From positions 52,162 through 116,161 of the forward strand of contig CAWCQX010000009.1 of NCBI GenBank assembly GCA_963797855.1: a stretch of 64,000 bases of DNA, given 5' to 3'. Under the pieces are notes generated by a model that saw nothing but the letters and a program-made list of their open reading frames with translations, ran no database searches and was not told where the DNA came from. The position numbers were made by a program, and so were the translations under genes. Each line of letters opens with the position of its first letter. Position 1 is the first letter of the stretch. The stretch comes from an uncultured Chloroflexia bacterium. Its GTDB lineage: Bacteria; Chloroflexota; Limnocylindria; QHBO01. Shown piece by piece: positions 17,290 to 59,668 of this stretch.

Positions 17290-19037
17290 GGGCCAGCGAC
17301 GGGCGGCAGGCGGCGCGCCACCAGCGGGCTCGACGACCGGTGGGCGAAGTCGACGACCCGGAGCCGCAGCCGGGGCATCCCGCCGAAGTCGTCGCGCTCG
17401 AGCGTGCCGACGAGGTCGACCTCGTCTCCCGGCTCCGGCAGCGGCCGCTCCGGCTCGAGGCCGAAGGCGATGGCGTCGAAGGTCTCGAGGCCCTCGGCGC
17501 ATCCGGAGGGCGACGTGCTGCTCCGTCGGCGCCGACGCGGCGCGCCTCGGTGAGCACCATGCCGGTGACCGCCAGGACCGGCTCGACGTGGCCCGGCCCG
17601 TACGGCGCGAGGCGGGCGAGCTCGTCGGCGAGCGTCCAGTCGAGGTAGGCGTGCCGGCAGCACGAGATCGACGACGCTCGGCCCGGGTCGTTCCGCCTCG
17701 GCCGCGGCATCCGCGGGAAACGGTCGCGGCAGTGCGGCGAAGGCGGCCGAGAACTCCGCCCACGACTCGGGCAGGAGGCTGAAGCCGCCTGCCGCCGCAT
17801 GCCCGCCGCGCTTGGTCAGGAGCGCGGCGCAGGCCTCGAGCGCCGCGGCGACGTGGAAGTCGGTGGGCGCCCGCACCGAGCCGCGGACCTCGTCGCCGAC
17901 GAGCGTCGCCGCCGCGACCGGGCGAGCGAGGCTGTCGGCGAGGCGACCGGCGACGAGGCCGACGAGCCCCGGCGCCCAGGCGTCGTCGCGCACGAGCAGC
18001 GGGCCCGATCCCGCGCTCCGCCGCGACGAGCGCCGGCGCCGCATCGACGGCCTGCTTCGTCAGCTCGCGGCGGCGCTCGTGGACCTCCTCGAGCTCGGCG
18101 GCCAGCTCCTCGGCGCGGATCGGGATCCTCCTCGAGCAGCAGCGTGATGGCCAGCTCGGCGTCGGCGATGCGACCGGCGGCGTTGATGCGGGGCACGACC
18201 CCGAAGGCGAGGTCGCGGGCCGTCGGCTGCGCCGGCACGTCGCAGCCGCGCGAGCAGGAGCGCGCGGAGGCCCGGCGTGCGTCGTCGTGCGCGAGCTCCT
18301 CGAGGCCGAGCCGGACGATCGCCCGGCTCTCGCCGGTCATCGGTGCCAGGTCGGCGACCGTGCCGATGGCCGCGATGGCCGCCAGCCCGTCGGCCGCGAC
18401 GCCGTGCCGGTCGAGCAGCGCCGCGGCGAGCTTGTACGACAGACCGGCGCCGGTGAGGTCGGGATCGGGATAGGCGCAGTCGGGGCGATGCGGGTCGACG
18501 ACCGCGACCGCCCGCGGCAGGACGGCGGGCGGCAGGTGGTGGTCGGTGATGACGACGTCGAGCCCGATCGCTCGCGCGACGTCGACCTCGGCCACGTTCG
18601 TGACCCCGCAGTCGCAGGTGATCGACGAGGGTCACGCCGCGCGACGCGAGGTCGCGCAGCCCCGACTCGGACAGGCCGTAGCCCTCGGCCAGGCGCGAGG
18701 GAACGTAGCGGACCGGATCGGCGCCGAGCGCGCCGCAGCGCGGTGACCCACACGACGATCGCGGTCATGCCGTCGGCGTCGTAGTCGCCCCAGATGGCGA
18801 TCCGCTCCCCCGCCTGCGAGCGCCGCATCGATGCGGTCGAGCGCCACGCTCCGCATCGGCCATGCGCGAGAGGTCGTGGAGCGCGCCGGCGCCGGCCTGG
18901 AGGAAGCGCTGGAGCTGGTCATCGGTCCGGAAGCCGCGGCGAGCGAGGAGCGTGGCGACCGGGGCCCCGAATCCGGTGAAGGCCGGCGGCTCCGGCACGG
19001 GCTCCGGCAGCAGCCACTCGAGGCTCGGGACGATCAC
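17290..19037 (-). CDS. recJ: single-stranded-DNA-specific exonuclease RecJ (multiply frameshifted)
   Basis: DHH motif (ERIAIWGDYDADGMTA; VITDHHLPP), DHHA1 (GGHAAAGGFSL) and C-terminal OB region found in four different frames. Confidence 0.65.
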
Positions 19038-20208
19038 CGCGCCATCGTAGCCGCGGCGGCTTCCCCGCCGCTTACGCGTTCCGTTATCGGCGCGTCAGGT
19101 GCGGGCCGGCGTCCTTCGCGCGTGCCTTCCGCCGCGTCCCAGTCGTCCCAGGCCACGAGGATCTGGCTGGCGTTGAAGATCGAGGAGTACGTGCCGCTGA
19201 CGACGCCGAGCAGCAGGGCCAGCGTGAAGGTGCGGATCGTCGGCGGGCCGAGCAGCAGCAGCGCGCCGAGCGTCACGGCGACGGTGAGCGAGGTGATGAT
19301 CGAGCGGCCGATCGTCTGGAGGATCGAGTGGTTGACGATCGCGCCGAACGGCTCCCCGGCGTGCCGGACCCGGTTCTCGCGGATGCGGTCGAAGACCACG
19401 ATCGTGTCGTGGACGCTGAAGCCGATGATCGTCAGCAGCGCGGTCACGAACAGCGCGTCGAACTCGAGGTTGAAGAAGTACCCGAGGATCGCGAACGTGC
19501 CGACCACCAGGATGACGTCGTGCAGCAGCGCCACGATCGCCGCGGTGCCGTAGCGGAACCCGAACCGCATCCACAGGTAGGCGAGGATGAAGAGCTCGCC
19601 GATGATGATCAGGATCGCCGAGCTGCGGATGAGCTCGGCGCCGATGATCGGGCCGACCGTCCGCACGATCCGCGGCTCGCCCGGCCCGAACTCGATCCTC
19701 GAGCTGCTCCTCGACGTCGGCGAACTCGGTGCCCGCGGCGATCGGCCGGGCGTCGCTCGGGCTCGGCGGGTTCGGCCGACGGGGATGCGGACGCCGCCGG
19801 GCTCGCCGAGGCCGCCGCGCTGCGAGCTCGGCCGCTCGCGTCGCGCTCGGGCGACGGGCTCGGCGCTGCCGACGCAGGCGATGGGCTCGCACTGCCGCTG
19901 GCGCGACCGATCCGGACGGCGACGGCTGCGGCGGCGACGGCGGCAGCGAGGTCGATCGGCTCGGTCCGGATGCGCAGGTACCCGCCCGGCAGCTCGGTGA
20001 CGACGACGTCCTCGTATCCGAGCTCGGCCAGGGCGGCCGTCATCTCGGCGGCGGTCGGCTCCTCGGCGTAGCGGACCTCCCACTCGGTCCCACCGGTGAA
20101 GTCGATCGACGGCTTCAGGCCGCCGAGGAAGATGAAGATCAGCCCGGGAATGGTGAGGAGCGCGCTGATGGCGAAGTACCAGTTGCGCTTGCCGACGATG
20201 TCGTACAT
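19034..20208 (-). CDS. secF: protein-export membrane protein SecF (one frameshift; Ala/Ser/Pro-rich insert)
   Basis: MYDIVGKRNWYFAISALLTIPGLIFIF...; ...VGPIIGAELIRSSAILIIIGELFILAYLWMRF...FSVHDTIVVFDRIREN.... Confidence 0.75.
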
Positions 20209-20211
20209 CGG

Positions 20212-21615
20212 TCTAGCGCTCCACGTGGTAGAGCTCGATGCCGGCGGCCCCAGCTCGTGCGGGTGACGCAGCGCAGCATCGTGCGGGTGACCGTGACGGC
20301 GCTGAACATGCTGACCAGCACGCCGACGATCAGGACGAGCGCGAAGCCGCTGCACGACCGTCGTCCCCTGCCAGTACAGCCAGCCGGCGACGAGGAGGCG
20401 AGCTGACGTTCGAGTCGAGGATGCTCGACCAGGCGCGGTTGAAGCCGGCCTCGATCGCCGGGCCGAGCGTCTTGCCGGCGCGGATCTCCTCCTTCATCCG
20501 CTCGAAGATGAGGATGTTGGCGTCGACCGCCATGCCGATGGAGAGGATGAACGCGGCGACGCCGGCGAGCGTCAGCGTGACGTCGATGATGCGGAAGACC
20601 GCGTAGACGACGAGCGTGTAGAAGATCAGCGCGATCGCCGCCAGCACGCCCGGCAGCCGGTAGTAGGCGATCATGAAGAGCAGGACCAGGAACAGGCCGA
20701 CCGCGCCGGCGACGAGCGCCTGGGCCAGGAAGTCGGCGCCGAGCGTGGGAGCGACAGTCTCGACGCCCTGCTCGCTCAGCGAGATCGGCAGCGCGCCGAA
20801 GCGCAGCGTGTTGTAGAGGTTCGTGCGCTCGGCCTCGTTCGCCGGGTCTGCGGGCCCGACGGTGATGATCGTCTTGCCGCCGCAGATCGGCGTCGTTGAT
20901 GGTCGGGGTCGTGATGACCTCGCCGTCGAGGGCGATCGGCCCGGGCCGGTCGACGTTCGCCGTCGTGAACTGGCACCAGATGTCGCTCGCCTCGTCGCTG
21001 AGGCTGAACTGGACGCCGATGAGGTTGCCCGTCGACGGCCGGCGCGACGCTCGCCGGCGTCGATCTCGCCGCCGTTGAAGAGCACGCGCGACCGTCCCGC
21101 CTCGAGCAGGTCGCTGATGTCCTGGCCCTCGGTGCAGCTGCTGGCCCTGCGGGATCGATGAACTGGAGCTGGCCGGTCGAGCCGACGAGGTCGCGGACCT
21201 GGTCTGGTCGTCGACGCCCGGCACCTCGACGACGATGCGCCGCGACCCGTCGCCGGCGGTCTCGGTGCGCACCTGCGGCTCGGTGACGCCGATGCCGGCG
21301 ACGCGGCGCTCGATGATGTTGCGGGCCGTCTCGAGGTCGGTCGGCGGTGACCGCCTCGCGCTCTGCGGGCTCAGCCTCGAGGGTCACCCGGATGCCGCCC
21401 TGGAGGTCGAGGCCGAGCACGGTGCGGAACTCGGCGCCGGCGACCTCGTCGGGCAGCCAGCCGAGGCCGAGCGTGGTGCGCGGCAGGTCGATGAAGATCG
21501 CCACGAGGGCGATCACCCCGATGACCCACGGGGCGATGCGGCGCCAGGTCATGCTCGGCCGCAGGTCCTCGATCTGCTCGGGGATGTCGTGCTGGCGGCT
21601 GAGCGCCTCGGACAC
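20212..21615 (-). CDS. secD: protein-export membrane protein SecD (multiply frameshifted)
   Basis: N-terminal TM, P1 head (GNLIGVQFSLSDEASDIWCQFTTANVDRPGPIALDGEVITTPTIND) and C-terminal TM bundle (...ILSIGMAVDANILIFERMKEEIRAGK...) in three frames. Confidence 0.7.
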
Positions 21616-21693
21616 GAAACACGCCGCTTCCTAGCGGCGGGCGGCGCAGAGTATAGCGAGTTTCCGGACGCGATGCCGGAGCGGGCCTCCGGT

Positions 21694-23699
21694 CTAGGCG
21701 AGCATCCCCTCGCGCGCGAGGTGCGCCTTCAGCCGCTCGGCGAGGTCGCGGCTGATCCCCGGCGTCGCCGCCACCTCCTCGACCGATGCCTCCCGGATGC
21801 GCCGCACCGAGCCGAAGCGCTTGAGGAGCGCCTTCTTCCGACCCGGCCCGATGCCCGCGATGTCGTCGAGCTCGCTGCGCAGCGCCCGCTTGCCGCGGAC
21901 GTCGCGGTGGTAGGTGATCGCGAACCGATGCGCCTCGTCCCGGATGCGCTGGACGAGGTAGAGCGCCTGCGACCGGCGCGGCAGCACGACCGGCGCGGAC
22001 CGGCCGGGCAGGTAGAGCTCCTCGAAGCGCTTCGCCAGGCCGGCGAGCGGGACGTCGGTGATCCCCAGCTCCGCGAGCACGCCGACCGCCGCCGAGAGCT
22101 GGCCCTTGCCGCCGTCGACGATGACGAGGTCGGGCACGGCCCAGCCGGCCTCGCGCGGGCGCGCTCGGCGGTTCGCCTCGATCGGTCCGGCGTCCGGCTC
22201 GAGGTCGAGCGGCTCGTCGTGCTCGCGGTCGCCCTCCGGCGCCTCGTCGGCGCCGACCGCGGCCAGCGACAGGGCGCCGGTCTCGGCCCGCAGCTTCGCG
22301 ACGCGGCTGAATCGGCGGCGAAGGACCTCGGCCATCATCCGGAAGTCGTCGGGCGTGTCGCCGGAGCGGATCCGGAAGCGGCGGTACTCCTGCGGCTCCG
22401 GCCTGCCGTCGATGAAGACGACCATGGAGCCGACCGCCGACGTGCCCTGGATGTTGCTCATGTCGTAGCACTCGATCCGCTCCGGCGCGCGTGGCAGCCC
22501 GAGCGCGGAGGCGAGCTCGGTCAGCGCCTCGTCGCGCTTGCGCGGCATCGGCCATCCACTCGGCCCGCTCGCGCTCGAGCGCCTCGACCGCGTTCTGGGT
22601 GGCGAGCGCCACCAGCCGCCGCTTCTCGCCGCGCTCCGGGACGGTGATCGTGACGCGCACGCCGCGCCGATCGGCGAGGTAGGCGGCCAGGTCGTCGGCA
22701 TCGGCCGGCATGAGCGGGCACGAGCAGCGCGCGCGGGAGCGCATCGGTGGTGGCGTAGTACTGCTGCAGGAAGGAGCCGAGCACCTCGGCCTCGGTCACG
22801 TCGCGCGCGCCCTCGACGATGAAGTGCTCGCGGCCGATGAGCTTGCCGTTGCGGACCTGCATGACCTGGACGCAGGCCTCGTCCTCCTCGCGCGCCATGC
22901 CGATCGACGTCGTGCTCGGCGCGGCTGAAGGCGGCCATCTTCTGCTGCTCCATCGTCCGCTCGACGGCGCGCAGCTTGTCGCGCGCCACGGCTGCCTGCT
23001 CGTAGCGGAGCGCCTCGGCGTGCGCCTCCATCTCGCGGCGCAGCTCGGCGGCGATCGGCTCCTGCTTGCCCTCGAGGAAGTCGACGATCTGGCCGATCGT
23101 CTCGCGGTAGGGCGCCTTCTCGATGGCCTGGATGCACGGCCCCTGGCATCGGTTGATGTAGTACAGCAGGCAGGGGCGCTCGAGGACGCGCTTGCCCTCC
23201 GGGATGTCGAGGTTGCAGGTCCGGAACGGGAAGATCTTGCGCAGCAGCTTCAGCGTCTCGTCGACGCTCGAGGCCGATGCGTACGGGCCGAAGTAGCGGC
23301 TCCCGTCCCGGACCAGCCGCCGGGTCCGCACGATCCGCGGGAAGTCCTCGCCGAGCGTGATCTTCACGAACGGGTAGCTCTTGTCGTCGCGCAGCCGGAT
23401 GTTGAAGCGGGGCCGGTGCTCCTTGATGAGGTTGCGACTCGAGGAGGTAGGCCTCGCTGCACCGTGTCGGTGACGATGTAGTCGACGTCGGCGACCTCGG
23501 TCACCATGCGGCCGATGCGGGCGTCCTCGGGCGGCCGCGCCCCGAAGTACGAGCGGACGCGGCCGCGCAGCGAGTCCGCCTTGCCGACGTACAGCACCCG
23601 GCCGCGCGGCGTTCTTCATCAGGTACACGCCCGGGCCTCGTCGGCAGCCGGCGCAGCACGGCGCGCAGCTGGTCGGGCAGGGCGCGCTGGGGGCTCATG
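21694..23699 (-). CDS. uvrC: excinuclease ABC subunit C (frameshifted near the N-terminus)
   Basis: GIY-YIG ([28 protein letters not shown]), UvrBC interaction region, RNase H-like domain and C-terminal (HhH)2 ([19 protein letters not shown]). Confidence 0.8.
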
Positions 23700-24111
23700 G
23701 GATCGATTCTAGGCGTGGCCGGGCCGCGATCGAGGCCGCAGGTAGCGTCGATCAGCCCCGCATCGGCCTCGCCGTCGATGAGCCCGAGCAGCCGATCCAG
23801 GCCGCGGGACGTCGCCGCGATCTCGTCGCGGTCAGCCAGCCGACCTCGGCGATCTCGCCGAACTGCGGCTCGAGCTCGCCGCCGATCACGGGGCCGCCGA
23901 ACACGAAGCTCACGTGTCGCGCGCTCGGCGAGCGTCGACGAGCGCAGCCGCTCGACGCCGACCTCGAGCCCGGTCTCCTCCCGCGTCTCGCGGACCGCGG
24001 CCACGTGCGGCGTCTCGCCGCGCTCGACGCGGCCGCCGGGGAGCATCCAGCCCGGCCGAGGTACGTGGTGCGCACGACGAGGATCCGGCCCTCGTCATCG
24101 GTGGCCAGCAC
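23700..24111 (-). CDS. NUDIX hydrolase (frameshifted)
   Basis: Nudix box [28 protein letters not shown] plus N-terminal [17 protein letters not shown], in two frames. Confidence 0.55.
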
Positions 24112-24119
24112 GTGGGCGC

Positions 24120-25390
24120 CCTCGATGCGGCGGTATCGGCCGCCGAACAGCCCGGCGAGCTCGATGACGCCGCCGATGAGGAGCCGCGGGAGATCGGCGG
24201 CCGGAGGCGCCGCCTACGGCGCATCGGTCGCGGACGGGGCCGGTTCGGGCGGCTGCGCCAGCTCGTCGGCGAGGTACTGCTGGATGCCGCCGTAGTCGCC
24301 CGGCCCGGTCCAGCCGGTCGGGATGAGGATGTACTGGCCGATCGGTGTTCGTCGTCGCCGTCAGGACCGGGCCCTCGGTGAGCTCGACGCGGCGGTCGCT
24401 CGACAGGTGCGACGAGAGGAGGAACAGGTCGATCACGGACAGGTCGGTGCGGACCCGGCCCTCCATCGCGTCCATGAGCCCCAGGCCCGGGACCGATCGA
24501 GCCGACGCCGCCGTCGCCGAGCTTCGCGCGCAGCGCCGCGAGGATCCGCGCCTGGCGCACCGACCGCGCGAAGTCGGTCGACTCCGACACGACGCTCGTG
24601 TAGCGCGCCCGGGAGTAGGCGAGCGCCTGCTCGCCGTCGAGGTGGAGCTCGCCCTGCTCGAAGCGGCCCATGTCCCAGTTGCCGGCGAGGTGCGATACTC
24701 CTCGATCGTCGTGTAGCTGAAGGCGACCGGGTTGTCGACCGTCACGCCGCCGACGGCGTCGACCATCTCCTGGAAGCCCGGTGAAGTCGATCGAGAGCCA
24801 GTGGTCGATCTCGAGCCCGGTGACCGTCGAGAGCGACGTCGGCCAGCGCGCGCCGGCGCGTCGTCGAGGGACTCTCGCCGTTGATGTAGCCGAGCGCGAA
24901 CACCTCGTTGATCTTGCCGTTCTGCGGAACGCCGGCGACGCCCTCGATCCACAGGTCGCGCGGGATCGGGATCGTGGTGTCGTGTCGGTCGCCGGATCGA
25001 TCGAGAGGATCTGGATCGAGTCGGCCAGGTAGGCGCCGTCGTGGTCCGCCGCCGCCGTAGCCGACCATCAGCACGTTGACCCGGTCGCTGCCGTTCAGCG
25101 GGCCGAGGAGCGGGGTCGAGGGGAATGGGGCGCTCGAGACGGTGGCGTTGAAGGCGGCCGCCCGCATCCCGAGCAGGACGCCGCCGACGATCGACGGCCA
25201 GCGAGCACGAGGAGCAGGACGTTGCGCACCGTTCGCCGGAACGAGCGTCCGCGCGCGGCGCGCGTGCGCGCGGCGCGCCGCGGCTGCGCGGAGGCTGGCC
25301 TGCTGCCGGCGGTCGCCGCTCGCTGCGAGGCGCCGCCGGAGCGGATCAGCTCGCGGTCGTAGGGACGGGTCGTCGTCGCGTCGCGCGGTG
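24120..25390 (-). CDS. LytR-CpsA-Psr (LCP) family cell-envelope protein (multiply frameshifted; boundaries approximate)
   Basis: DRVNVLMVGYGGGG...IPRDLWIEGVAG...GKINEVFALGYING; ...GELHLDGEQALAYSRARY...; N-terminal Arg-rich segment plus TM. Confidence 0.55.
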
Positions 25391-27113
25391 TCTCGGCGTC
25401 ACACGGATCTCATGCTGCGGCTGGGATGGTCGTCGCTGGGCGGCGACAGGATAGGGCTTGCCCTCTGACGGCCGGCACGCCGCGCTGTCACCGATAAGCC
25501 GCCGGTGATCCGCCGGTAAGCGGCCGCCGCCACACGATCGGCCGATGGACCGCCGTCGCCGACACCGACCCGGCTCGACCTCGGCCCGATCCTCGACGCG
25601 CTCGACCCGGAGCAGCGGGCCGCCGCGACGCTGCCGGACGGGCCGGCCCAGATCATCGCGCCGGCCGGCAGCGGCAAGACGACGACGATGGTCGCCCGCC
25701 TCGCCGTGCTCCTCGCGCGCGGCGTCGCGCCGGCGCGGATCTGCGTCGTGACCTTCAACCGCGATGCCGCGCAGGACCTCGCGCGCGCGGGTCGCGAAGC
25801 GCCTCGGCCCGTCGGTGCCGGCCGCCACGTCGATCGAGATCCGCACGCTCCACGCGCTCGCGCGCCAGGTGCTGCTCGACGCCGGCGAGGGCTCGAACCT
25901 CGTCGCCGACCGGCTTCCGCTGCTGCGCGCCGCCCGGCGACGGCATGCCGCGGCGGATCCATCGGTCCCGCTGCCGGAGGCGTCGCCAGCTCGACACCTG
26001 GCTCTCGGCCTGGAAGGTCGAGGGCCGCGCGCCGCCGGCCGAGGCCGACGCCCGTGCTGCGGACCTACGAGGATCTGCTGCGCGCGCGCGGCGCGATCGA
26101 CTTCGACGACCTCGTCGTCCGCGCCTGCCGACCTGCTCGAGACGCGATCCGGCGCTCCGCCTGCGCTGGCAGTCGCGCTTCAGCACGTCTGCGTCGACGA
26201 GTTCCAGGACGTCGATGCCGCGCAGCTGCGCCTCGTCCGGCTCCTCGCCGCGCCCGAGGACAACCTCTTCGTGGTCGGCGACGACGACCAGACGATCTAC
26301 GCCTGGCGCCTCGCCGATGTCCGGCGCATCCTGCGCTTCGTCGAGCGACTACCCGGCCGCGCGGCGCGTGATGCTGGCGACGAACTACCGATGCCCGGCG
26401 GCCGTCATCGAGGCGTCCGCGCGGATGGTCGCCGTCAACCGCGAGCGCTTCGCGAAGCCGATTCGGGCGCCCGCACGGCGCCGCGGCACGAGCCCGGCGG
26501 CGATCTCGGCGGTGAGCACGGCCGACCCGCGCTGGCCGCGACGCATGGCGCAGCTCGCGGCGGCCGAGGACCGCGCCGGCCGAACGCTGCTGCTTCCTGT
26601 CGCGCACGCGCGGCGAGCTGACGCCGGTCCTCCTCGCGCTCGTCGCGCGCCGGCGTCCGGCACACGGCCGCCGTCCCGCCGCTCGTCGAGGCCGAACCCG
26701 TGCTCGAGCTCGTCGTGGCCGCGCGCGCCTCAGACGATGGCGGCCATCCGTTCCACGTCCTGCGACGGCTCCGCGCCGCGCGCGGCTGGGATCGCGGCAG
26801 CCCGTCCGGCGACCTGCTCTCCGACGAGGATCATGCGGCGCTCGACGCGCTCCTCGGCTGGACCGCCGCGTTCCGCACGGTCGACGCATTCGTCGACGCC
26901 TTCGCCGGCGCGCGAGCGCGGATCGCCGCGCTGCGGGATCCCGGATGCCCGCGTCGAGCTCGCGACGGTCCACGCCTCGAAGGGGCGGGAGTGGGAGACC
27001 GTGGTGCTCGTCGGGTTCGAGGCCGATCGGATCCCGAACCGGCGGACGCTGCGTGGACGCCGATGACCCGGACCGCGCGATGGAGGAGGAGCGGCGGCTG
27101 GCGTACGTCGCCG

Positions 27114-30139
<3,026 letters not shown>

Positions 30140-41138: not shown

Positions 41139-41336
41139 GGGATGACGATTCTAGCCGTCGTCCATCCGTCCCACCCCAACCGCTCCCAACGGCCTATATC
41201 GGCGCCATCGGGCCGTCCATAGGATCGGTGCCGCTGCCTGTCCCGAACCTCGCTCGAGTGCCCGCAACCCCGATGGTCAATCCGATTCGACAGGTCTCTC
41301 GCCGATGGACGCTCGGCGAACGGCCCCCGCCGCGCC

Positions 41337-41888
41337 GTGGACGGCCAGGCGATGGTCGAGTTCGCCGCCGTCCTGCTGCCCATGCTCCTGATCGTGGTCG
41401 GCATCGTCCAGTTCGGGCTCCTGTTCGGCGCGAACGTGACCCTCACGAACGCGGCCCGCGAGGCGGCACGGGCGGCGACGATCACCCGGTTCGACGTCGC
41501 CTCCACGCGGGCGACGAACGACGTCACCCGCTGCACGGCCGCGCTCGACGCCGCCCTCCAGTCGTTCGGGATCCTGGCCGCCGGCTCGCCGCACTTCGTC
41601 GTGACCGATCCGTGCCCCGCCGGAACCGACCTGAACGGCGACGGCTACCACGACCGGTGGGTGAACGGCGACATGACCGTGACCCTGTGCTCCTCGATGG
41701 CGACGCCGACGAGCCCGTGCCCGACGACCGGCACGTACTGCGCGACCGACGACCCGGTCGGGTGCCTCGTCCAGGTCCGGCTGACGTACCGATCCGACAT
41801 CGTCGTGCCGTTCATGGGCGCGCTCCTGCCCCACGACGCGAACGGGCGCTTCGTCCAGCACGCGACGACGACGATGGTGGTCAACTGA
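41337..41888 (+). CDS. TadE-like pilus-assembly protein
   Basis: N-terminal TadE signature MVEFAAVLLPMLLIVVGIVQFGLLF. Intact. Stop overlaps start of next gene. Confidence 0.75.
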   Translation: MDGQAMVEFAAVLLPMLLIVVGIVQFGLLFGANVTLTNAAREAARAATITRFDVASTRATNDVTRCTAALDAALQSFGILAAGSPHFVVTDPCPAGTDLNGDGYHDRWVNGDMTVTLCSSMATPTSPCPTTGTYCATDDPVGCLVQVRLTYRSDIVVPFMGALLPHDANGRFVQHATTTMVVN

Positions 41889-43905
41889 TGCGCCGCGCCG
41901 CGCCGCGCGGGCAGATGCTCGTCATCTTCGCCGTCCTCCTCGTCGTGCTGCTCGGCATTCGCGGGCGTGGCGATCGACGTCGGGCGCGTCACGGCCGAGC
42001 GGCGGCACGCCCAGGCCGCGGCCGATGCCGGGGCCCTCGCCGCCTGCCGCGCGCTGATCGCCGGCGAGACCGATACGGCCGCCGCCACCGCGGCGCAGCA
42101 GGTGACGCTCACGAACCTCCAGAACTCGCCGGCCGGCGCGACCGCCACGATCGCCTCGCCGCCGACGCTACGAGGACCTCGACGGCAGCGGCGCGATCGA
42201 CGCGCGACGAGCTCGTCAGCGGGATCGTCGTCGCCGGCACGACGGTCCGCGTCGCCGTCGACTCGACGGTCGACACGATGCTCGCCCAGGTCGTCGGCAT
42301 CCACGACGCTCGACACCGGCGCCCGCGCGCGCTGCGACCTCCAGGGCGGCCCGGCCGTCCCGATCGTCGCCCGTCGCTACGCGAACCCGCCGGGCCCGGG
42401 GAGCGGCTTCGTCGACCACCTCGCCACGGCCGCGTCGAGCGGGTCGGGCGTCGTCGACACGATCGAACCCGCGCGGCTACGACGTCCGCACGCCGGCCAG
42501 CGAGGCGGCCCCTGGCCCGCAGTTCACGATCTACGGTCCGAACAGCAAGGCCCACAACGACTCGAGCTTCCGCGGCTTCGTCGCGCTCGACGTCCGGAAC
42601 TTCGAGAGCGCCGACAGCCGCGTCTACTACAACGGCGTCACGGCCGGCATGAACCCGAACACCCTCAAGGACAACGAGGGCGCCTACCTCGTCACCGGGT
42701 ATCCCGGGCCCGGCGTTCCCGCCGGTCGCGACGCCGCCGACCGGCGCCGACCCAGGTCGCGGTCCTCTCCGGCAACAGCACCTCGTTCGTCGCCGGCGCA
42801 GTTCGACGACACGTTCCGCGTCGGCGACCGCCTGATGCTCGCCGTCTACGACGGCACGGTGATGGAGATCCCCGACTTCACGATCAGCCCGCCGGTCGAG
42901 ATCGCGCTCCCGTCGACCACGGTGACTCCGTACGACGGCCCGACGACGACGATCTCGCGCAACGACGACTTCCACAGCACGGTCACGCTCTCGATGCGCG
43001 GCGACGCGCGGCGCGGCCGCGGTCGGGCCATCCGGAGTACGACATCCTCCCGGACCCGTCGGTCACGCCGCCCGCAGCCGGCGACATGACCGAGCCGATC
43101 TGGTCGACGAACGTCTTCGAGCCGGCGAAGAACGGCACGACCGTGCCGCCTCAACGACATGCAGACGAACGCGATCCCGCCGGGCATCTACACCGTCTGG
43201 ATCGAGGGCGAGTCGGGCAACCCGTACTACCAGCGCCGCCAGGTGCCGGTGCCGGTCCGGGTGCAGACCGACGGCAACAACGACGGCGACTACAACGACG
43301 CCGTCGACGTGAAGGTCACCCGCGACTTCAGCCTCGCACAACTCGGTCCTCGACGGCTCGACCGCGACCCTGGGCGGCACGATCACCCTGCCGCTGCGCG
43401 TCTCGACCGGCAACGGCACGACCAACTGGGGCAGCGGCCCGGCCGCCGAGACGAACGTCAGCCCTCAGCTGGGACACCGACTACGCTCACGACCTGCAGC
43501 CTCGCAGCCGCACGTCGCTCGGCATGGGCACGATCGGGTTCAGCTCGCCGTCCGTCACGCCGACGACCGGGACCGGGACCGCGGTGACGCTCACGATCAA
43601 CACCGCCGGCCTGACCCAGGGCTGCTACCTGTTCACGATCCGCGGCCACGGCGTCAACAGCAACGGCCAGCCGGTGACGCCACCTCGCGACCGTCCGCTT
43701 CACCGTGGCGACCACGTCGAGCAGCGGCCAGTACGTGGACATCATCGGCTTCGCCGTCTTCCAGATCGATGCCGTCGGCACGAACGACATCGTCGGTCAC
43801 GCCGTGACCGGCATCGCCGCCGACCCCAACGACCCGACCCTGCGACGCGCGCAGCGCGCCGCGCCTGGTCCCGTGGTCATGACCCAGCCCGCAGCCCGCT
43901 AGGAG
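41888..43905 (+). CDS. large TadG-like (putative Flp-pilus tip/assembly) secreted protein, multiply frameshifted
   Basis: N-terminus MRRAAPRGQMLVIFAVLLVVLLG plus AIDVGRVTAERRHAQAAADAGALAACRAL (TadG N-terminal motif). Remaining about 550 aa spread over all three frames with beta-rich Thr/Gly/Asn-rich repeats. Ends ...IAADPNDPTLRRAQRAAPGPVVMTQPAAR. Confidence 0.5.
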
Positions 43906-43914
43906 CGCAGTCCC

Positions 43915-44752
43915 GTGGAACTCGAATATTCGGACAAGAACAGCCGCAGATCGAAGGTCTACATCGCGGTCGGCCTCATCGTCGCCCTGGTCGTCGGGGC
44001 GACGGTCTTCGTGGCCCTCCAGGCGAGCGGCCTGACCGCCGACGGCGACGTCGAGATGCGTTCGGTCGTCGTCGCCGTCCGCGACATCCCCGCCCGCAAG
44101 GCGATCGAGGAGGGCGACGTCGCCGTCCGCGAGGTCGTCGCGGACCAGACGAACGAAACCGCCTTCGCGCGGCTCGACGAGGTGCTCGGGCGCGTCGCCG
44201 GCATCCCGGTCTCGACCGGGCAGCTCGTGACCCGCAACGTCCTCGCCTCGACGACCGAGGGCCAGGCGTTCTCGATCCTCGATCTCGGCGACGAGTTCGA
44301 CCCGAGCGGACCCGACTGGCGCGCGGTCAGCCTCACGGTCGTCGCCGCGAACGCGGTCGGCGGCACGCTCGTGCCGGGCCAGGTCGTCGACCTGATCGTC
44401 ACGATGCCGCTGAACCCCGAGGTCGGGCAGACCGAGGAGGGCGTCGCCGAGCAGGCGACGACCGTCGTGCCCGGGCCCGTCGACGAAGGTGACGCTCCAG
44501 TCGGTGACCGTCCTCGCGCGGGCCGGTGACGTCTACATCGTGCGCGCCGACCTCGCGACCGCGGAGAAGATCGCGGAGCTGCTCGCCGTCGGCGGCACGT
44601 TCACGATGGCCCTCCGTCCCGCGGAGGACGATCGGACGGCGGACACCGAGGGATCGACGATCGATCGCCTGGTCGAGGAGTTCGGCTTCCCGGTTCCCGC
44701 CCCGCTCGAGGTCGCGCCGTCGCAGTCGGCGGACGCCGACAGCGGAGGCTAG
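43915..44752 (+). CDS. cpaB: Flp pilus assembly protein CpaB/RcpC (one frameshift about 44490)
   Basis: N-terminal TM, SAF domain (RSVVVAVRDIPARKAIEEGDVAVREV), C-terminal beta domain (VTVLARAGDVYIVRADLATAEKIAELL). Confidence 0.7.
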
Positions 44753-45323
44753 CCGGAGGTCAGCGTCGCCAGGGCGCGCTCCACCTGGCGACGCGTCTCC
44801 TCCATCGGCGCCGAGCCGTCGATCACGACGTCGGCGGCGGCGACCTTCTCCTCCTGCGACGACTGGCTGTCGAGCCGGGCGCGCGCCGTCGCCTCGTCCA
44901 TGCCGCGCGACGCGGCCAGGCGGGAGATCGCATCGGCCTCGTCGCAGCGGACGACCCAGATCTCGTCGCAGCCGTCGGCCAGCGGCGACTCGAGAAGCTT
45001 GATGACCTCGACCGCGGCAACCTCGACGCCGCCCTGGGCGAGCTCGGCCAGGCGCGCCCGGATCGCGCCGCGCACGCGCGGGTGGAGGATCCGCTCGAGG
45101 TCTCGCAGCGCGTCGGGATCGGTGAAGACGACCTCGGCCAGCTCGGCGGCCTCGTAGGTCCCGAAGCGGCGCTGGATCTCGGCGCGCGCCTCCGCATCGT
45201 TGTGGCGGATCTCGCGCGCGACGGCGTCGGCGTCCACGGTCGCCGCCCCGAGGTCGCGCAGCATCCCGGCCACGGTGCTCTTTCCGCAGCCGATGTTGCC
45301 GGTCAGGCCGATCACCTTCATGG
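44749..45323 (-). CDS. coaE: dephospho-CoA kinase
   Basis: [21 protein letters not shown]... P-loop kinase. Appears fused to mutM in the ORF track only because of the upstream frameshift. Confidence 0.75.
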
Positions 45324-45329
45324 CCCGCC

Positions 45330-46233
45330 CGATCCTACCGGCTCCGGCTGGCAGTGCGGGCAGAAGTGGGTGCTGCGCTGGGCGACGACGATGCGCCGGA
45401 TCGGCCGTCCGCATCGGTAGCAGGGCTGGTCGGTGCGCTGGTAGACCATCAGCCGCTCCGCGTTCTCGCCCGGCTCGTCCATCGGTGCTCACGTAGTCGC
45501 TGAAGCTGCTGCCGCGGTTCGCGATCCCCTGCCGCAGGACCGTGCGGATGGACCGATGCAGCCGCCGCACCTCGGCCTCGTCGAGCGTGTCCGCCGCCCG
45601 CAGCGGGTGCAGCCGCGCCCGCCACAGCGCCTCGTCGGCATAGATGTTCCCGACGCCGGCGATGAAGGACTGGTCGAGGAGCAGCGTCTTCAGCTTCGCG
45701 CTCCGTCGCGCGAGCCGCTCCTTCAGCCGCTCGACCGTGAAGCCGCGGCTGAGCGGCTCGGGACCATGGCCGCTGAAGACCTCGCCGATCCGGTACCGGC
45801 GGCTCTCCTCCGCGACGCGCTTCGACCGCGCGCCGCGTCCGGCGCCGACGGTCCGAAGCCCGCCACCGGGCCACAGCCCGATCCGCCCGAACTTCCGCAC
45901 GTCGCGGTACCGCAGCTCGCGGCCGTCGGTGAGCGCGAAGGCGACCCGCACGTACGGATCCGGGGGCGTTCCCTCGGGCACGACGAGCAGCGCGCCGGTC
46001 ATCCGCAGCGCGACCGTCATCACGCGTCCGTCGTCGAGGTGGAGGAGGACCGTCTTCGCTCGCCGGTCCACGCGGCGGATCGTCGCGCCGGCGACCTCGG
46101 CGACGAATCGCTCGGGCGGCTGCGGATGGCGGATCGTGCGATCCCAGCTGACGGTCGCGTCGCGGACCGTCGCGCCGGCGACGACGCGCTGGAGGTCGCG
46201 CGCGACGGTCTCGACTTCGGGGAGCTCCGGCAT
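45330..46233 (-). CDS. mutM: formamidopyrimidine-DNA glycosylase (C-terminal zinc finger frameshifted)
   Basis: [14 protein letters not shown] (catalytic Pro2/Glu3), H2TH ([27 protein letters not shown]). The Cys4 zinc finger is out of frame. Confidence 0.75.
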
Positions 46234-54928: not shown

Positions 54929-55387
54929 ATGGGCGTCGACCACCGCCGGCTGATTGACCGGCTGACCGCGGCACTTAGCCGAAGCGACTGGCCAATTCTT
55001 TCCGAGGTCTTCGCACCGGATGCGCTGATGGAGTTCCCTCAGTCCGGCGAGGCGTTCGAGGGCATCGACAACATCCGAGGCCAGTTCGCCGACTACCCGG
55101 ACATGTTCGACAACCCCGTCAGCACGCTTGACATCGCGGCCGAGGAACAGACATTTGCGCTCTCCCCGAACTACACGGTGATCTCCGTCGGTGGCAGCGG
55201 CAAGAGTGCGACCGCCACCATGCGCACGCGCTACCCGGATGGGTCGCTGTGGTGGGTGCTCGTCGTCTATGACACGGACGGCGAACTCATGAGCCGAGCC
55301 AAGGTCTATTTCGCGCCCGAGTTCGAGCCGGCGGAGTGGCGATCGAAGTATCGGGCTCCGTCCAACAGGGACGGTGCGTCGGGATAG
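54929..55387 (+). CDS. SnoaL-like / NTF2-fold protein
   Basis: MGVDHRRLIDRLTAALSRSDWPILSEVFAPDALMEFPQSGEAFEGIDNIRGQF... about 150 aa, typical SnoaL_2-like polyketide-cyclase fold proteins. Stop TAG lies inside repeat copy 2. Confidence 0.55.
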   Translation: MGVDHRRLIDRLTAALSRSDWPILSEVFAPDALMEFPQSGEAFEGIDNIRGQFADYPDMFDNPVSTLDIAAEEQTFALSPNYTVISVGGSGKSATATMRTRYPDGSLWWVLVVYDTDGELMSRAKVYFAPEFEPAEWRSKYRAPSNRDGASG

Positions 55388-55394
55388 CGGCGGC
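55370..55394 (+). repeat. repeat element copy 2 (core only: GACGGTGCGTCGGGATAGCGGCGGC)
   Basis: Core motif without the SD-like part. Sits in the convergent gap between 54929-55387 and 55402-55581. Confidence 0.65.
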
Positions 55395-55401
55395 CCGCTG
55401 C

Positions 55402-55581
55402 CTAGCTCTCGCTGATCACCGTGATGACGGACTCATCACGGCGCCACTCGTGGTCGGCTCCACAGCCGGCACAGCCGTTCAGGACGTTGACCGCGGGCAG
55501 CTCGTCCAGCACATCCGCTGTGACCCCGGTTGGCACCAAGTCACCGGTCTGCGGGCACGTGATCAACACTACCGACCTCAC
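55402..55581 (-). CDS. small CPxCG-type zinc-ribbon-like protein (59 aa)
   Basis: GTG start preceded by AGGGGAGG SD at 8-nt spacing. MRSVVLITCPQTGDLVPTG...NGCAGCGADHEW. Low GC3 codons (gta, ttg, aca, cca) atypical for this genome. Confidence 0.45.
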   Translation of the reverse strand: MRSVVLITCPQTGDLVPTGVTADVLDELPAVNVLNGCAGCGADHEWRRDESVITVISES

Positions 55582-55924
55582 CTTGCGGCCCTCCCCTATC
55601 CCCGGTATCGGCGGCGCAGTCGATGTATCGGAGAAGCCTCGGGCCGACATCTCTCCGGGCAGGGAGTCATCCGACCGAGGCCCCCGCCCATGCTGTATGC
55701 AACCGCCATGCCGATGGCACGCTCGGTGCACTGGTACAGCAGAGCCGCCGGACAGACTGCGGGGGAACGCAGTTGAACCGGCGGCTCTTCCCTAACTCTA
55801 CTGCTGCGGTCCACGAAGACAGGAGACCCGTGGCGTGAGGCTGCCCTCGAGCGGAAGCTCGAACTCACGGCACGGGTCTGCGAGTAACAACGCAAGGGCT
55901 TGCTCGGCGTTAGGCACGGAGCTG

Positions 55925-55958
55925 GCAGGGAGGATCGGTGCGTCGGGATAGCGGCGGC
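55925..55958 (+). repeat. repeat element copy 3 (GCAGGGAGGATCGGTGCGTCGGGATAGCGGCGGC)
   Basis: SD-like plus GTG plus core. A 19-codon uORF (VRRDSGGLCVAALAGKRNL) follows it. Confidence 0.7.
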
Positions 55959-56070
55959 TTGTGTGTGGCTGCTCTTGCTGGCAAGCGTAACCTTTGAAGG
56001 CCGCCAGACATTCCGGCGGTGCCACCCGCTGTCGTGGCTAACGGGTCCCCGAGCAAGGAGGGATGTCCCC

Positions 56071-56244
56071 GTGCGTCCACTTCATTTGAGAGCGGCGATG
56101 GTGGTCGCCATCCTCTCCATTCTGGCCCTCGCCACGCCCGCGCTGGCGCAGAAGGGCTTCTCATTCAAGTTCACGCAAACTGGAACAGCGGCATCCGCCT
56201 CGTTTGGTTCGTGCATCCCCGACACGCCCGAAGAGGGCTCTTGA
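56071..56244 (+). CDS. small secreted protein with Sec signal peptide (57 aa), possibly the 5' part of a larger frameshifted secreted protein
   Basis: GTG preceded by AAGGAGGG SD. Signal peptide MRPLHLRAAMVVAILSILALATPALA then QKGFSFKFTQTGTAASASFGSCIPDTPEEGS. Confidence 0.5.
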   Translation: MRPLHLRAAMVVAILSILALATPALAQKGFSFKFTQTGTAASASFGSCIPDTPEEGS

Positions 56245-56372
56245 GACCTGCGACTTCACCTTTGTCAGTGTGGTCGATGGTTCCACGCGCTTCTCCTCCT
56301 CTGACGAGGGGGTCACCCGGGCAGCGGTTCCCAGGCGTGTGTCGACCATCAGGTCTCGATCCAGAGTGATGA

Positions 56373-56822
56373 TTCTTCGAGTTGGTGAGCCTGCAGAGCG
56401 GATGCACCGACACGTTCACCTTGGCGACTGCAGCCGACCTGTCGAGCGCCCATCTGGTGGCCACGGTGCCGGTGTTCGACCTTGAGTGCGATGAGTTCAC
56501 CTGCGAGCCAGTGGGCGACCCGACCGACACGGCGGTGGACATCACCTGGTCAGCGGATGAAGTCCAGACCGTGCGCGAGCACGGGGTCTTCCACTCTCTT
56601 CAGGGCGACCTGTGGTGCACCAGCAATCAAACCCGTCGCGGGCTGGGTGCGTTCGGCACAGCGACTGGCACTGTCGGCGGTGTTGATGTCGGAACCGCCG
56701 AGTTCGCCGAGATCTTCTCCGGTGTCATGAAGTTCAATGACAATCTGCCACTAAGCGGGGTGCCATCTGGCGGCTTGGAGGCGCTAAGGACGCGCAAGCC
56801 GCCAGTAATCGACCCGGAGTAG
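56373..56822 (+). CDS. hypothetical Cys-containing protein (no own SD/signal peptide; probable continuation of 56071-56244 through two frameshifts)
   Basis: Open frame from the stop at 56370 to 56822. Repeated C-x-(D/T)-F-T motifs shared with the signal-peptide ORF and the intervening frame (CDFTFVSVVDGSTRF). Confidence 0.4.
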   Translation, partial: FFELVSLQSGCTDTFTLATAADLSSAHLVATVPVFDLECDEFTCEPVGDPTDTAVDITWSADEVQTVREHGVFHSLQGDLWCTSNQTRRGLGAFGTATGTVGGVDVGTAEFAEIFSGVMKFNDNLPLSGVPSGGLEALRTRKPPVIDPE

Positions 56823-56850
56823 CCTCTGGCATCGAGCCGCCGCGAATCCC

Positions 56851-56896
56851 GGCCATTACCCGCCTCAGCTAGCAGGGAGGATCGGTGCGTCGGGAC
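56851..56896 (+). repeat. repeat element copy 4 (long form, 3' part diverged)
   Basis: GGCCATTACCCGCCTCAGCTAGCAGGGAGGATCGGTGCGTCGGGA then diverges (CGCTGCGCC). Confidence 0.65.
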
Positions 56897-56975
56897 GCTG
56901 CGCCGGGTACGAACCGAAGTTCATACCCGGCGCGAGACTGGAAGGGCTGCAGCAGCCATGCCATGTGCAGCGTTC

Positions 56976-57001
56976 GATCGGTGCGTCGGGATAGCGGCGG
57001 C
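56976..57001 (+). repeat. repeat element copy 5 (core GATCGGTGCGTCGGGATAGCGGCGGC)
   Basis: Exact core. 95 nt downstream of copy 4 and in the same reading frame. A 43-codon uORF spans both. Confidence 0.7.
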
Positions 57002-57240
57002 TCTCTGTGACCCGCTCGGTTGGAGTCCGGCCGATGAGAGTTCTCTGGCACGAACGTTTGTCCGGTGTCAACGGATGTGGCGCTCCGGGCTTGACCTCTC
57101 CCAGTGCCCAGGAGTAGTACTCACCGCACCCGAGTGCCCTTCTCCGCTGCCCGCGTTCACGGCGACCCGGGTTCAGCGCGCGCCGCGAACGGTGCGCACA
57201 GCGCCGTCGCTGTCACGACGGCAGAACGAAGGAGCACTAC

Positions 57241-57594
57241 GTGCCTCGATCCCATTCCTGGAAGTCGCGGTTCGGCTTTGCCGTCGCGACCGCCGCTCTT
57301 GTGGCAAGCCTCACCGCGGGAGCTGCGCTGGCCGGCGAGGTCACGGGGCCGCCCGGCAAGGGTGGCCTTACGCCGATCGGCGCTGCGCCTGATACCGATC
57401 CGCATGCGCACTCGATCTGCTCGTTCTCTGGTCTTGGTGACGGAGAGGATGCGCCCGGCCGGACGGCCGCCCACGTCCAGAACTGGGGACAGATCCCGAA
57501 GGTGCAGCGAGACGCGATGAGCCTTATCGGCTTCCATCCCGGCGACTCGTGCAACGGCCATTCCGGATTCTTCTCCGGGGCCGGCGGGGAGTAG
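57241..57594 (+). CDS. hypothetical secreted protein (117 aa) with Sec signal peptide
   Basis: GTG preceded by GAAGGAG SD. Signal peptide MPRSHSWKSRFGFAVATAALVASLTAGAALA. Mature part Gly/Pro-rich with two Cys. Confidence 0.5.
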   Translation: MPRSHSWKSRFGFAVATAALVASLTAGAALAGEVTGPPGKGGLTPIGAAPDTDPHAHSICSFSGLGDGEDAPGRTAAHVQNWGQIPKVQRDAMSLIGFHPGDSCNGHSGFFSGAGGE

Positions 57595-57656
57595 TCCCCG
57601 GCGCACTGTCCCGGATTCCCGGGCGCAGTCGAGAGCCGCCGCGAAACCCGTCAGCC

Positions 57657-57681
57657 ATCGATGCGTCGGGCTAGCGGCGGC
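57657..57681 (+). repeat. repeat element copy 6 (variant core ATCGATGCGTCGGGCTAGCGGCGGC)
   Basis: ATG instead of GTG, GCT instead of GAT. Starts a 77-codon ORF (57661-57894) of doubtful coding value. Confidence 0.6.
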
Positions 57682-57887
57682 TTCTCAACCTTCGAAGACC
57701 CGGGGCACGCTCGAGCTGGTTCGCCAGCGGTCAGGACCCCTGAGCGGCGTCGACGTTTTCGGTCTGGGGCTCCAGGCGCCGGACCACGATCGTTTCGTGG
57801 CGCTCACGCTCGGCTGGATCGGGAATCCATCGGCGCTCGAACGGCTTCACTCGCAGCGCCAGCCAGGCGCGAATTCGACGGCGCATG

Positions 57888-58686
57888 TCAGTGATCCTCG
57901 CCCGATCCCTCGGGATTCTCGTGGTCACCGCCGTTGCCCATGATCGAACCGATGCCGGGATGCACCCCCAGCTCCTTCGCGATCTGGCCCCAGCCCATCC
58001 CGCTTCCTTCCGAGCCGTCACCGTCGCGCATGACGCGAAGATCGGCCATCCGGTCAGGATCCGCCTGAGACCAGGCGACGATGCGGACCGCGCCACCGAC
58101 TCCGTACTTCGTGGCGAGCTCGGTCAGCACCTCGTCCGAGACCTCGAAGCCGTTCGCGGCGAGCCGCTCGCCGGCATGGGCGATCTCATCCGCGGTCGGA
58201 GGGCTGTCGCCTTCGTCCTCTGTCGGGCTCCGCAGACTCTTCGGGCTCCGCAGACTGTTCGGGCTCCGCAGACTCTTCGGGCTCCGCAGACTGTTCGGGC
58301 TCCGCCGACTGGCTCGCCTCACCCGGTGTCTCAAGCGCGCGTGTCACGACGACTGCCGCGCTCGCGACCAGGATGAGGGCGAGGAGGATCGCCAACCCGA
58401 AGCTGTTCGTTCGCGTCATCAGGGCCGAAGCGTACCCGATGCACCTTGCCGTGAGCCTTGCCGCACGGGCTTTCGCGGTGCCCAATGGCACCGTCCCAGG
58501 CTGCCGAGGATCAGCCCGCGGCGGCCTGCGTGCGGAGCGTGACCGGGCGACCGGGCGGGAGATCCAGGCGGCGGACGTGTCGTGCCGGCGTCGCGCCTCG
58601 GCCACCGCCTCGGCAAGGGTTGCCGAGGGAGCGGCCATGACCGCGAGCTGCACGGAGCGGACCTGGCCGTGTGTCGTTCCGTTCAT
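57888..58686 (-). CDS. membrane-anchored protein with acidic hexapeptide repeats (SAEPE[QE] x5), frameshifted inside or next to the repeat tract
   Basis: ATG preceded by CCAGGAGG SD. Cytoplasmic N-terminal about 90 aa, TM helix (FGLAILLALILVASAAVVV), SAEPEQ/SAEPEE repeats. C-terminal domain (...GWGQIAKELGVHPGIGSIMGNGG...) in a second frame. Confidence 0.45.
58222..58311. repeat. tandem repeat, 18-nt unit x5 (TTCGGGCTCCGCAGACTC/G)
   Basis: Five near-perfect head-to-tail copies with the last base alternating C/G. Encodes SAEPE[QE] on the minus strand. Confidence 0.9.
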
Positions 58687-58974
58687 CTCGTGGGACCTCC
58701 TGGACCGTGTCATTCGGCGGCGCAATCAAGGCGCCGTCGTGGTGCCACGGTACGGGCGAGGGCCGGTGGCGCCCATCGGGCGCCCGACGGTATCGGTCCT
58801 GGGAGAAGCGTCCGGGGTGCCTCGGGCGGGATGACGTACGAGCGGTAGACTCTCCGACGGTCGGCCCGTTGCGGGGCAGACCAACCGGCCGTCGGCGTTC
58901 TCACCGCCGGCGGCCACCTGCGTGCTAGGCTTCGTCGCCACCCGGAACCAATCGAGGAGCTCCGTCGCCTCTCC

Positions 58975-59668
58975 ATGACGACCGACGAGACCGTCGACTG
59001 CTACAACTGCGGCCGATCGAATCCCGAGTGGGCGCAGGTGTGCCGATCCTGTGGCGTTCCCCTCCGACATGGCCAGGCGCGCGTCGTGCCGACCGGTCGC
59101 ATTCCCACCGACATGAACTCCCTGATCTCGATCGCCGCGGTGATCGGGGTCATTCTTGGCGCCGTCGTGCTGGGCATCTTCCTCTCGAGCCTCAACCCGA
59201 CCGATCCGCTCGTGGGCGAGGGCGCGCCGACGCCGACGGCGACCCCGTCGCCGTCAGCCGAACCCACCGCCGCGCCACCGAGCGAGACGCCCGAGCCGAC
59301 GCCGTCCCCCACTCCGGCCCTTCCGGGCACGATCGCGTTCGGTGACTCGCTCGACGCGAACCGAATGGTCGCCAATCCGGTCGAGACGTTCACGCCGTCG
59401 ATCGCCTTTGCGTACTCCGTCTCACTGCCGGGCGGATTCGGCACCGACACGATCGAGAACGAGATCGCGAAGATCGACGACGGGGCCGAGACGATCGTCC
59501 TTCCCCGCGAGGGCGTCGCCGTCGATCCGGCCGCGACGGCGTTCGGCTACGTCGTCGGCACCGCCGGGGACTTCCTCGGAGCCTGGGGCCCGGGCGAGTT
59601 CGAGTGGCGCGTCTACGTCGACGGAACCGTCGCCGCGCGCGGCCGGCTTCCGCTACTCCGAGGGCTAG
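58975..59668 (+). CDS. zinc-ribbon membrane protein with Pro/Thr/Ala-rich linker and extracellular domain (C-terminal frameshift)
   Basis: CYNCGRSNPEWAQVCRSCG ribbon, TM (LISIAAVIGVILGAVVLGIF), PTPTATPSPSAEPTAAPPSETPEPTPSPTP linker. The in-frame ORF would overlap the convergent hydrolase gene. A stop at 59668 is reached in the +1 frame. Confidence 0.5.

Follow-up and report, generated by a model that had tools for sequence, protein, structure and literature searches.

A likely in-frame coding minisatellite in the linker of a small Chloroflexota protein, beside a probable single-base consensus error

Introduction

In-frame repeat expansions are common in the disordered linkers of exported proteins. 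Low-complexity spacers are also part of TonB, which consists of an N-terminal membrane anchor, a Pro/Glu-rich spacer spanning the periplasm, and a folded C-terminal domain. Contingency loci have repeat units of 1–8 nt, and their copy changes shift the reading frame or alter promoter spacing; such simple-sequence loci were reportedly described by Moxon et al. 1994 for phase-variable genes of Haemophilus, Neisseria, and Campylobacter. The R-domain of the staphylococcal proteins ClfA and Fbl is made of 18-bp units encoding acidic hexapeptides, with copy numbers that vary among strains (9–52 in Fbl), and serves as a flexible stalk by which the binding domain is kept away from the surface (PMC6533592).

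Here, we analyse a tandem array of five head-to-tail 18-nt units at positions 58222–58311 of a 64-kb stretch of DNA (64,000 nt, hereafter the window) from an uncultured member of the Chloroflexota of the Limnocylindria type. By analogy, the R-domain of ClfA and Fbl may be regarded as the closest functional counterpart of this array: both have an 18-bp in-frame unit, encode an acidic hexapeptide, are positioned between an anchor and a domain, and show copy-number differences. They differ in that the array holds 5 units versus 9–52 in Fbl, in that its hexapeptide is SAEPE[Q/E] versus SD/SDSDSA, and in that a hydrophobic helix is present at the N-terminus here, while the staphylococcal proteins carry an LPXTG sortase signal at the C-terminus. 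The array-bearing protein of ~176 amino acids also has an unrelated domain and no homology to ClfA or Fbl. The LPXTG motif is absent from it (the C-terminus reads GNGGDHENPEGSGEDH before the stop codon), as are Ser-Asp repeats, and the match to an LPXTG family of NCBIfam reached only E=0.1 and 13 bits against a cutoff of 47. Membership of the MSCRAMM/Sdr family was rejected because of the missing LPXTG motif and Ser-Asp dipeptide repeats.

With TonB, the array protein shares an N-terminal anchor, a Glu-Pro-rich low-complexity spacer, and a folded C-terminal domain. This resemblance is compositional only, and the C-terminal domain of the array protein is all-helical and unrelated to that of TonB. 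Membership of the TonB family was rejected, since the NCBIfam match (E=0.02, 14.7 bits against a cutoff of 265) covered the helix and the spacer only; no ExbBD context was seen in the neighbouring genes examined. With contingency loci, the array has in common that it is an intragenic tandem repeat in a probably surface-exposed protein, with a repeat number that differs between relatives. Unlike in these loci, its unit is 18 nt long, frame-neutral, and located inside the open reading frame (ORF), and the nearby frame break lies outside the repeat and is best explained as an error.

Repeat array and gene model

TRF placed the array at 58223–58311 (period 18, 4.9 copies, 94% matches, zero indels) with a score of 157, the maximum among the 98 TRF rows for the window, the runner-up scoring 64. 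When up to two mismatches were allowed, the unit TTCGGGCTCCGCAGACTS was matched five times in the window, always head-to-tail within 58222–58311, against a chance expectation of 0.02 matches estimated by dinucleotide-preserving shuffles. All five units are in register, and their last base alternates between G and C, giving a super-period of 36 nt. The initial annotation had described a perfect 18-nt repeat in five copies. Five head-to-tail units with an alternating last base are present, while "perfect" slightly overstates the case: the three units in the middle are the only exact ones, with one mismatch in each of units 1 and 5 (i.e., G instead of T as the first base of unit 1, and C for A at position 13 of unit 5, CGCCGAC versus CGCAGAC).

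On the minus strand, the array encodes SAEPEQ-SAEPEE-SAEPEQ-SAEPEE-SAEP(E/D), corresponding approximately to residues 39–68 of the repaired protein and located just after the N-terminal hydrophobic helix, and its plus-strand translation is GLRRLF repeated five times; both translations agree with those given at the outset. The coding frame is fixed by the two closest homologues, P0001 and P0002, both of which contain SAEPEx repeats. Two other readings were considered and rejected: plus-strand coding of GLRRLF, because the homologues and the GC3 phase fix the minus strand, and the neighbouring minus-strand frame (A+1, giving SLRSPK/SLRSPN), which has a slightly higher GC3 in the array, because P0001 and P0002 read SAEPEx. 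The earlier description of the array as an acidic spacer after an N-terminal hydrophobic helix therefore holds, with coding on the minus strand and in frame.

In the window, the gene is split between two frames. Frame A runs on the minus strand from 58419 to 58186 and encodes 77 amino acids, i.e., MTRTNSFGLAILLALILVASAAVVVTRALETPGEASQ-SAEPEQ-SAEPEE-SAEPEQ-SAEPEE-SAEP followed by a terminal DRGRRRQPSDRG and a stop codon. Past the array, this frame runs into SAEPDRGRRRQPSDRG and the stop, and the conserved C-terminal domain continues one base on, in frame A+1, from ~58221 through TEDEGDSPPTADEIAHAGERLAANGFEVSDEVL and GMGWGQIAKELGVHPGIGSIMGNGGDHENPEGSGEDH to its stop at 57888. Both the translations and the alignment confirm that the frame changes from A to A+1 immediately 3' of the tract in the coding sense, as had been noted initially. 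The high-GC third codon position was found in phase 1 (frame A) at 58350–58440 and in phase 0 (frame A+1) from ~58320 down to 57900, the phase changing near 58320–58350.

The two frames were joined where the array ends, and with the resulting 176-aa product as a query, 450 proteins were retrieved at E≤0.01, many of them single ORFs of ~150 aa with 100% query cover. The closest were P0001 (175 aa, 91% identity) and P0002 (164 aa, 84% identity), both with 100% query cover. As homologues span both halves as single ORFs, the two ORFs of the window are halves of one gene. Once the net +1 nt is removed, this gene encodes 176 aa and occupies 57888–58419 on the minus strand, in agreement with the 450 homologues, the alignments, and the GC3 phase switch. 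The start M-[TS]-R- of the homologues corresponds to the ATG at 58419 (MTRTNSF), in front of which no Shine-Dalgarno sequence was found. The gene limits proposed previously (57888–58686, preceded by a Shine-Dalgarno sequence) merge two genes, and a longer gene beginning at 58686 was rejected because the Shine-Dalgarno-preceded ATG at that position opens a separate conserved small ORF.

Protein architecture and family

The first 28 residues (MTRTNSFGLAILLALILVASAAVVVTRA; 58336–58419, minus strand) make up a segment resembling a signal anchor or a signal peptide, for which an AlphaFold2 model, built on the family alignment and with a mean pLDDT of 73.8, predicts a helix at residues 6–28. R3 and R27 are invariant in the homologue alignment, and an ASA motif at residues 19–21 makes it possible that the segment is a cleavable signal peptide instead of an anchor. 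The pLDDT falls to 44–55 over residues 31–70, a segment that holds the whole repeat, and amounts to 88–96 over residues 71–150, where helices were predicted at 76–88, 95–117, 121–132, and 143–150. Based on pLDDT and invariant columns, a conserved all-helical C-terminal domain was delimited at residues ~76–160 plus the tail (57906–58194, minus strand), with the motifs YGVGGAVR..AWS, MRDGDG, and GMGWGQIAKELGVHPGIGSIMG.

Searches with the repaired protein and with its C-terminal domain gave nothing above cutoff in Pfam-A, TonB_C included, or in NCBIfam. A profile of 27 family members searched against the PDB had its best match at E=0.044, on the N-terminal helix region, and the best Foldseek match of the AlphaFold2 model in the PDB had E=2.4. 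A scan of genome contigs with the single protein confirmed no relatives, whereas an alignment-based scan of species-representative genomes did find them and assigned the family to MAGs carrying the label Candidatus Limnocylindria, Chloroflexota, or Chloroflexia.

The most conserved motif of the family, GMGWGQIAK(E/D)LG, recurs in proteobacterial proteins with signal-peptide-like N-termini and Gly-rich tails. The proteobacterial regions L020 2488–3294, L027 2545–3384, and L033 2527–3297 have MGYGN(I/V) and GMGWGQIAK(D/E/G)(L/M)G in common with the Limnocylindria family, and their tails are Gly/Asn-rich or Pro/Glu/Lys-rich; no Pfam match was obtained for L020, the sole proteobacterial member scanned. 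The proteobacterial and Limnocylindria proteins may thus represent a wider, uncatalogued exported domain. Considering the signal-peptide-like N-termini of the proteobacterial motif carriers, together with the N-terminal hydrophobic helix of the array protein, the C-terminal domain is probably extracytoplasmic, i.e., facing outward.

Upstream region

A small ORF preceded by AGGAGG is located upstream at 58511–58686 on the minus strand, as supported by the translations, the indel list, and tblastn. It has 58 aa in L001, the locus that encodes P0001, where it runs from MNGTTH (MNGTTH.QVRSVQLAVMAAPSATLAEAVAEARRRHDTSAAW) to a terminal RAQAAAG, and is about the same size in L002, the locus of P0002, ending in AQAAAAG. 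According to tblastn, the small ORF adjoins the gene in L001, L002, L008, L011, and L012. In the window only, a 1-nt deletion near 58539–58542 breaks this ORF and fuses it in frame with the downstream gene, creating a misleading ORF of 179 aa.

Directly 5' of the start codon, alignment A3 revealed conserved non-coding DNA at 58420–58490 (minus strand), which is kept even at ~50% protein identity. It comprises two GCAAGG motifs ~13 nt apart, followed by TAnGCT. In the clade of the window, the ATG comes ~9 nt after TAnGCT and lacks a Shine-Dalgarno sequence, and L004, L005, and L008 have an extra 20–28 nt with a GGAGG-like sequence ahead of the start codon. The conserved stretch may act as a promoter or an operator, with a transcript that is leaderless or has a very short leader. 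A simple scan for sigma-70 promoters and intrinsic terminators found none, and Rfam, searched over 57000–59500, gave nothing in 58420–58490. The single sub-threshold Rfam match, to CcsR1 at 57567–57647 on the minus strand (21.1 bits against a gathering score of 65.3, E=0.04), is probably due to chance. The 3.6 kb at 55337–58951 were labelled non-coding by the hidden Markov model (HMM) of reading frames described below, with a lower GC content (0.656) and a weak codon-position GC signal; at least three genes conserved in relatives are located within it, i.e., the array gene, a 117-aa protein with a hydrophobic N-terminus (57241–57594), and the small ORF.

Frame break and consensus quality of the contig

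Pairwise gap lists and the multiple alignment place the frame break at 58216–58224, within the minus-strand sequence GAGCCCGACAGAGGAC. The loci L001, L002, and L003 each stay in one frame through this site, and relative to them the window has a net surplus of 1 nt (+4 nt versus L001 and L002, at 58222–58209, and +1 nt versus L003, at ~58218). The simplest repair is to take one base out of GAGCCCGACAGAGGAC, which results in SAEPEE-DEGDSPP, SAEPD-EDEGD, or SAEPT-EDEGD. The extra base maps to GACAGAGGAC, i.e., the edge of the array and just past it, where neither a homopolymer nor a short simple-sequence repeat is present; homopolymers are the classic place of indel errors in long reads.

Three other gene-breaking 1-nt indels were found in the window only, over the ~7 kb for which L002 offers a comparison, one of them being the deletion near 58540 in the small upstream ORF. 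In all overlapping parts, L001 and L003 show the state of L002 and not that of the window. At 63131, a window-specific 1-nt insertion (C to CC on the minus strand) frameshifts the last ~60 residues of an SBP_bac_3 protein, which reads AIDADYP/GRRGWRPGLL in the window versus AIDEGYPVVAVGDPVFFEPL (DEGYPVVAVGDP in L002), with L001 and L002 agreeing against the window. At 59645, another window-specific 1-nt insertion falls in the gene of a zinc-ribbon/transmembrane protein that starts at 58975. In the window, this ORF extends over 269 aa and into the convergent CN_hydrolase gene, while in L002 it ends at 230 aa with AARGRFRYSEG. The density of frameshifts near the array (~4 in 7 kb) is nevertheless much below that of the region at 8.8–27 kb.

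To survey reading frames over the window, we used a seven-state HMM on codon-position GC with switch probabilities of 1e-4, 1e-6, and 1e-8, which returned 87, 56, and 37 same-strand frame changes, respectively, without a nearby in-frame stop. The frame changes cluster at 4–28 kb and 40–44 kb and are dense, one per 50–600 nt, at 8825–27252 and also at 4000–8300 and 41300–45500. The HMM independently recovered a change at 63127 and is not simply noisy, given that it holds single frames over 1.4–2.8 kb elsewhere. Translation along the HMM path from 15358 to 8825 yielded a stop-free sequence of 2161 aa with recognisable housekeeping proteins, three pieces of which were scanned against Pfam: a histone-deacetylase-family gene at 14576–15358 (Hist_deacetyl, Pfam positions 36–288 of 298, E=1e-73, 2–3 frame changes), triosephosphate isomerase, tpiA, at 10558–11304 (TIM, 1–243 of 245, E=1e-77, 4 frame changes), and phosphoglycerate mutase at 9000–10557 (iPGM_N plus Metalloenzyme, full length, E=1e-67, 7 frame changes). 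Each of these stitched pieces gives one full-length Pfam match in a single stretch with no stop codons. Genes for tpiA and phosphoglycerate mutase that are multiply frameshifted but stop-free and well conserved are incompatible with a living genome, and several frameshifts per glycolytic gene in an otherwise intact protein point to indel errors in the consensus and not to gene decay.

The same defect of broken frames was observed in close relatives from assemblies with 'contig_N' names. In L001, the Ring_hydroxyl_A gene is split, and CN_hydrolase is called at only 146 aa versus 283 aa in L002. L001 also has 42 gaps of one or two bases relative to the window within ~170 nt (3069–3240), an extreme local cluster of deletions of the kind typically seen when a long-read consensus is of low quality. 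Among the relatives, the MFD-named MAGs were assembled from Nanopore data only, with Flye and one Medaka round, and their catalogue has been inspected for Nanopore-associated errors by its authors (PMC12313526). The many single-base breaks in well-conserved genes make the window similar to long-read-only metagenome assemblies with indel-split genes, from which the break at the array edge differs in lying outside a homopolymer. With tens of single-base frame errors in the contig, its ORF-level oddities (i.e., split, overlapping, and fused ORFs, and apparent pseudogenes) are to be treated as suspect until compared with relatives.

Given that three neighbouring genes are likewise disrupted by 1-nt indels found in the window only, the break at the array edge is most likely an error of one base in the consensus or the assembly (net +1 nt) and not phase variation. 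A sequencing slip had already been named as one option in the initial annotation, and the tens of frame breaks in the same contig make it the favoured one.

Copy number and origin of the array

TRF counted 4.9 copies in the window, 5.1 in L001, where the sixth codon differs among the units (E, G, R, G), 3.1 in L002, a k141-named contig from a short-read-type assembly, and 0 in L003. This copy-number variation concerns only three repeat-bearing sequences, of which L001 is itself error-prone. The array was found only in the closest relatives, and L003 and all other homologues inspected have none; in homologues without the array, the linker is a short acidic stretch, e.g., EASPQAADGDEDESPPTADE. 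An exact 18-mer scan of metagenome contigs gave 43 single-copy chance matches, none encoding a relative, and no extra alleles. As had been reasoned from a unit that is a multiple of 3, copy changes spare the frame, the counts among relatives being 5, 5, 3, and 0.

The window and L001 share 93.2% DNA identity over the stretch (i.e., ~7% of positions differ), yet each has five units. With an equal count at this level of divergence, the array is variable but not demonstrably hypervariable. Its confinement to the closest relatives points to a young, lineage-specific, in-frame coding minisatellite, and the near-identical units and the 36-nt super-period suggest recent duplication, which would have taken place by slippage or unequal recombination. 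Three features of an in-frame coding minisatellite were found here, i.e., a translated unit that is a multiple of 3, a non-globular site between anchor and domain, and copy variation among relatives. As far as the compared sequences tell, the array is a recent expansion within one shallow clade, in the sole part of the protein that tolerates changes in length.

Discussion

Considering these results, we regard it as likely that the array represents a coding minisatellite, in frame, by which a disordered acidic tether is lengthened, that the frame break next to it is artefactual, and that the true ORF encodes 176 aa (58419 to 57888). We propose that an 18-nt unit, duplicated most recently as a 36-nt pair, would have expanded by slippage or unequal recombination within the linker of a small protein, either exported or anchored in the membrane, that belongs to an uncharacterised family of the Chloroflexota/Candidatus Limnocylindria. 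The expansion would add ~30 acidic, proline-containing, and predicted disordered residues, (SAEPE[Q/E])n, between the N-terminal helix and the helical C-terminal domain. A change in copy number would then alter the length of the presumed tether and leave the frame unaffected, and the break at the 3' edge of the array in the coding sense would be a single-base error outside the biology of the organism.

The alternative that survives best, although we consider it unlikely, is that the break is a genuine mutation at the edge of the repeat, so that the gene would be a pseudogene or would encode a 77-aa stub consisting of the anchor and the repeat. In its favour, the given sequence does contain the break, which is located at the boundary of a repeat, a plausible site of replication errors, and not in a homopolymer. 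Against this, the contig needs tens of frame corrections, including 4 in tpiA and 7 in the phosphoglycerate mutase gene, and three neighbouring genes contain 1-nt indels specific to the window. The frame downstream of the break is also undecayed, with high GC3 and 91% identity to P0001.

An artefact of assembly could be suspected for the array itself or for its length, in the form of a collapsed, expanded, or chimeric repeat, given that the consensus of the contig is poor and that repeats are error-prone in assembly. This reading appears quite improbable, as independent assemblies contain the same unit in the same place (5.1 copies in L001 and 3.1 in L002), the 90-nt array is shorter than typical reads, and no internal indel disturbs the register of its five units. 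We assign a low probability, lower still, to the combined proposal that a fast-evolving, length-variable tether sets the reach of a previously undescribed extracytoplasmic helical domain, of a family occurring mainly in Limnocylindria, and that the extra nucleotide is a real, inactivating strain-level allele. If this were true, soil Chloroflexota would vary a surface protein both in length and in presence.

The locus had also been described as contingency-locus-like, i.e., as a phase-variable locus in which slippage in or next to the repeat switches the protein, or in which an exposed stalk varies under selection. The copy numbers of 5, 5, 3, and 0 among relatives and a protein that is probably surface-exposed would be in line with such a role. 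This description was not supported by the analysis, and we judge it very improbable, as copy changes of an 18-nt unit, a multiple of 3, cannot shift the frame, the break lies outside any short simple-sequence repeat or slippery tract, and the same contig has tens of similar breaks. Moreover, hypervariability is not visible between the window and L001, both having five units despite a DNA difference of ~7%. Programmed +1 ribosomal frameshifting that joins the two frames has a negligible probability, supported only by the fact that the full protein can be read from two overlapping frames, whereas all relatives use one frame, no conserved slippery or stall motif is present, and identical-looking breaks are scattered through housekeeping genes.

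The in-frame minisatellite favoured here is of small biological weight, the array being short, represented by three sequences, and of an ordinary kind of expansion. The protein that carries it belongs to an unannotated family with ~450 matches, mainly in MAGs of the Chloroflexota/Limnocylindria, which is a candidate for cataloguing.
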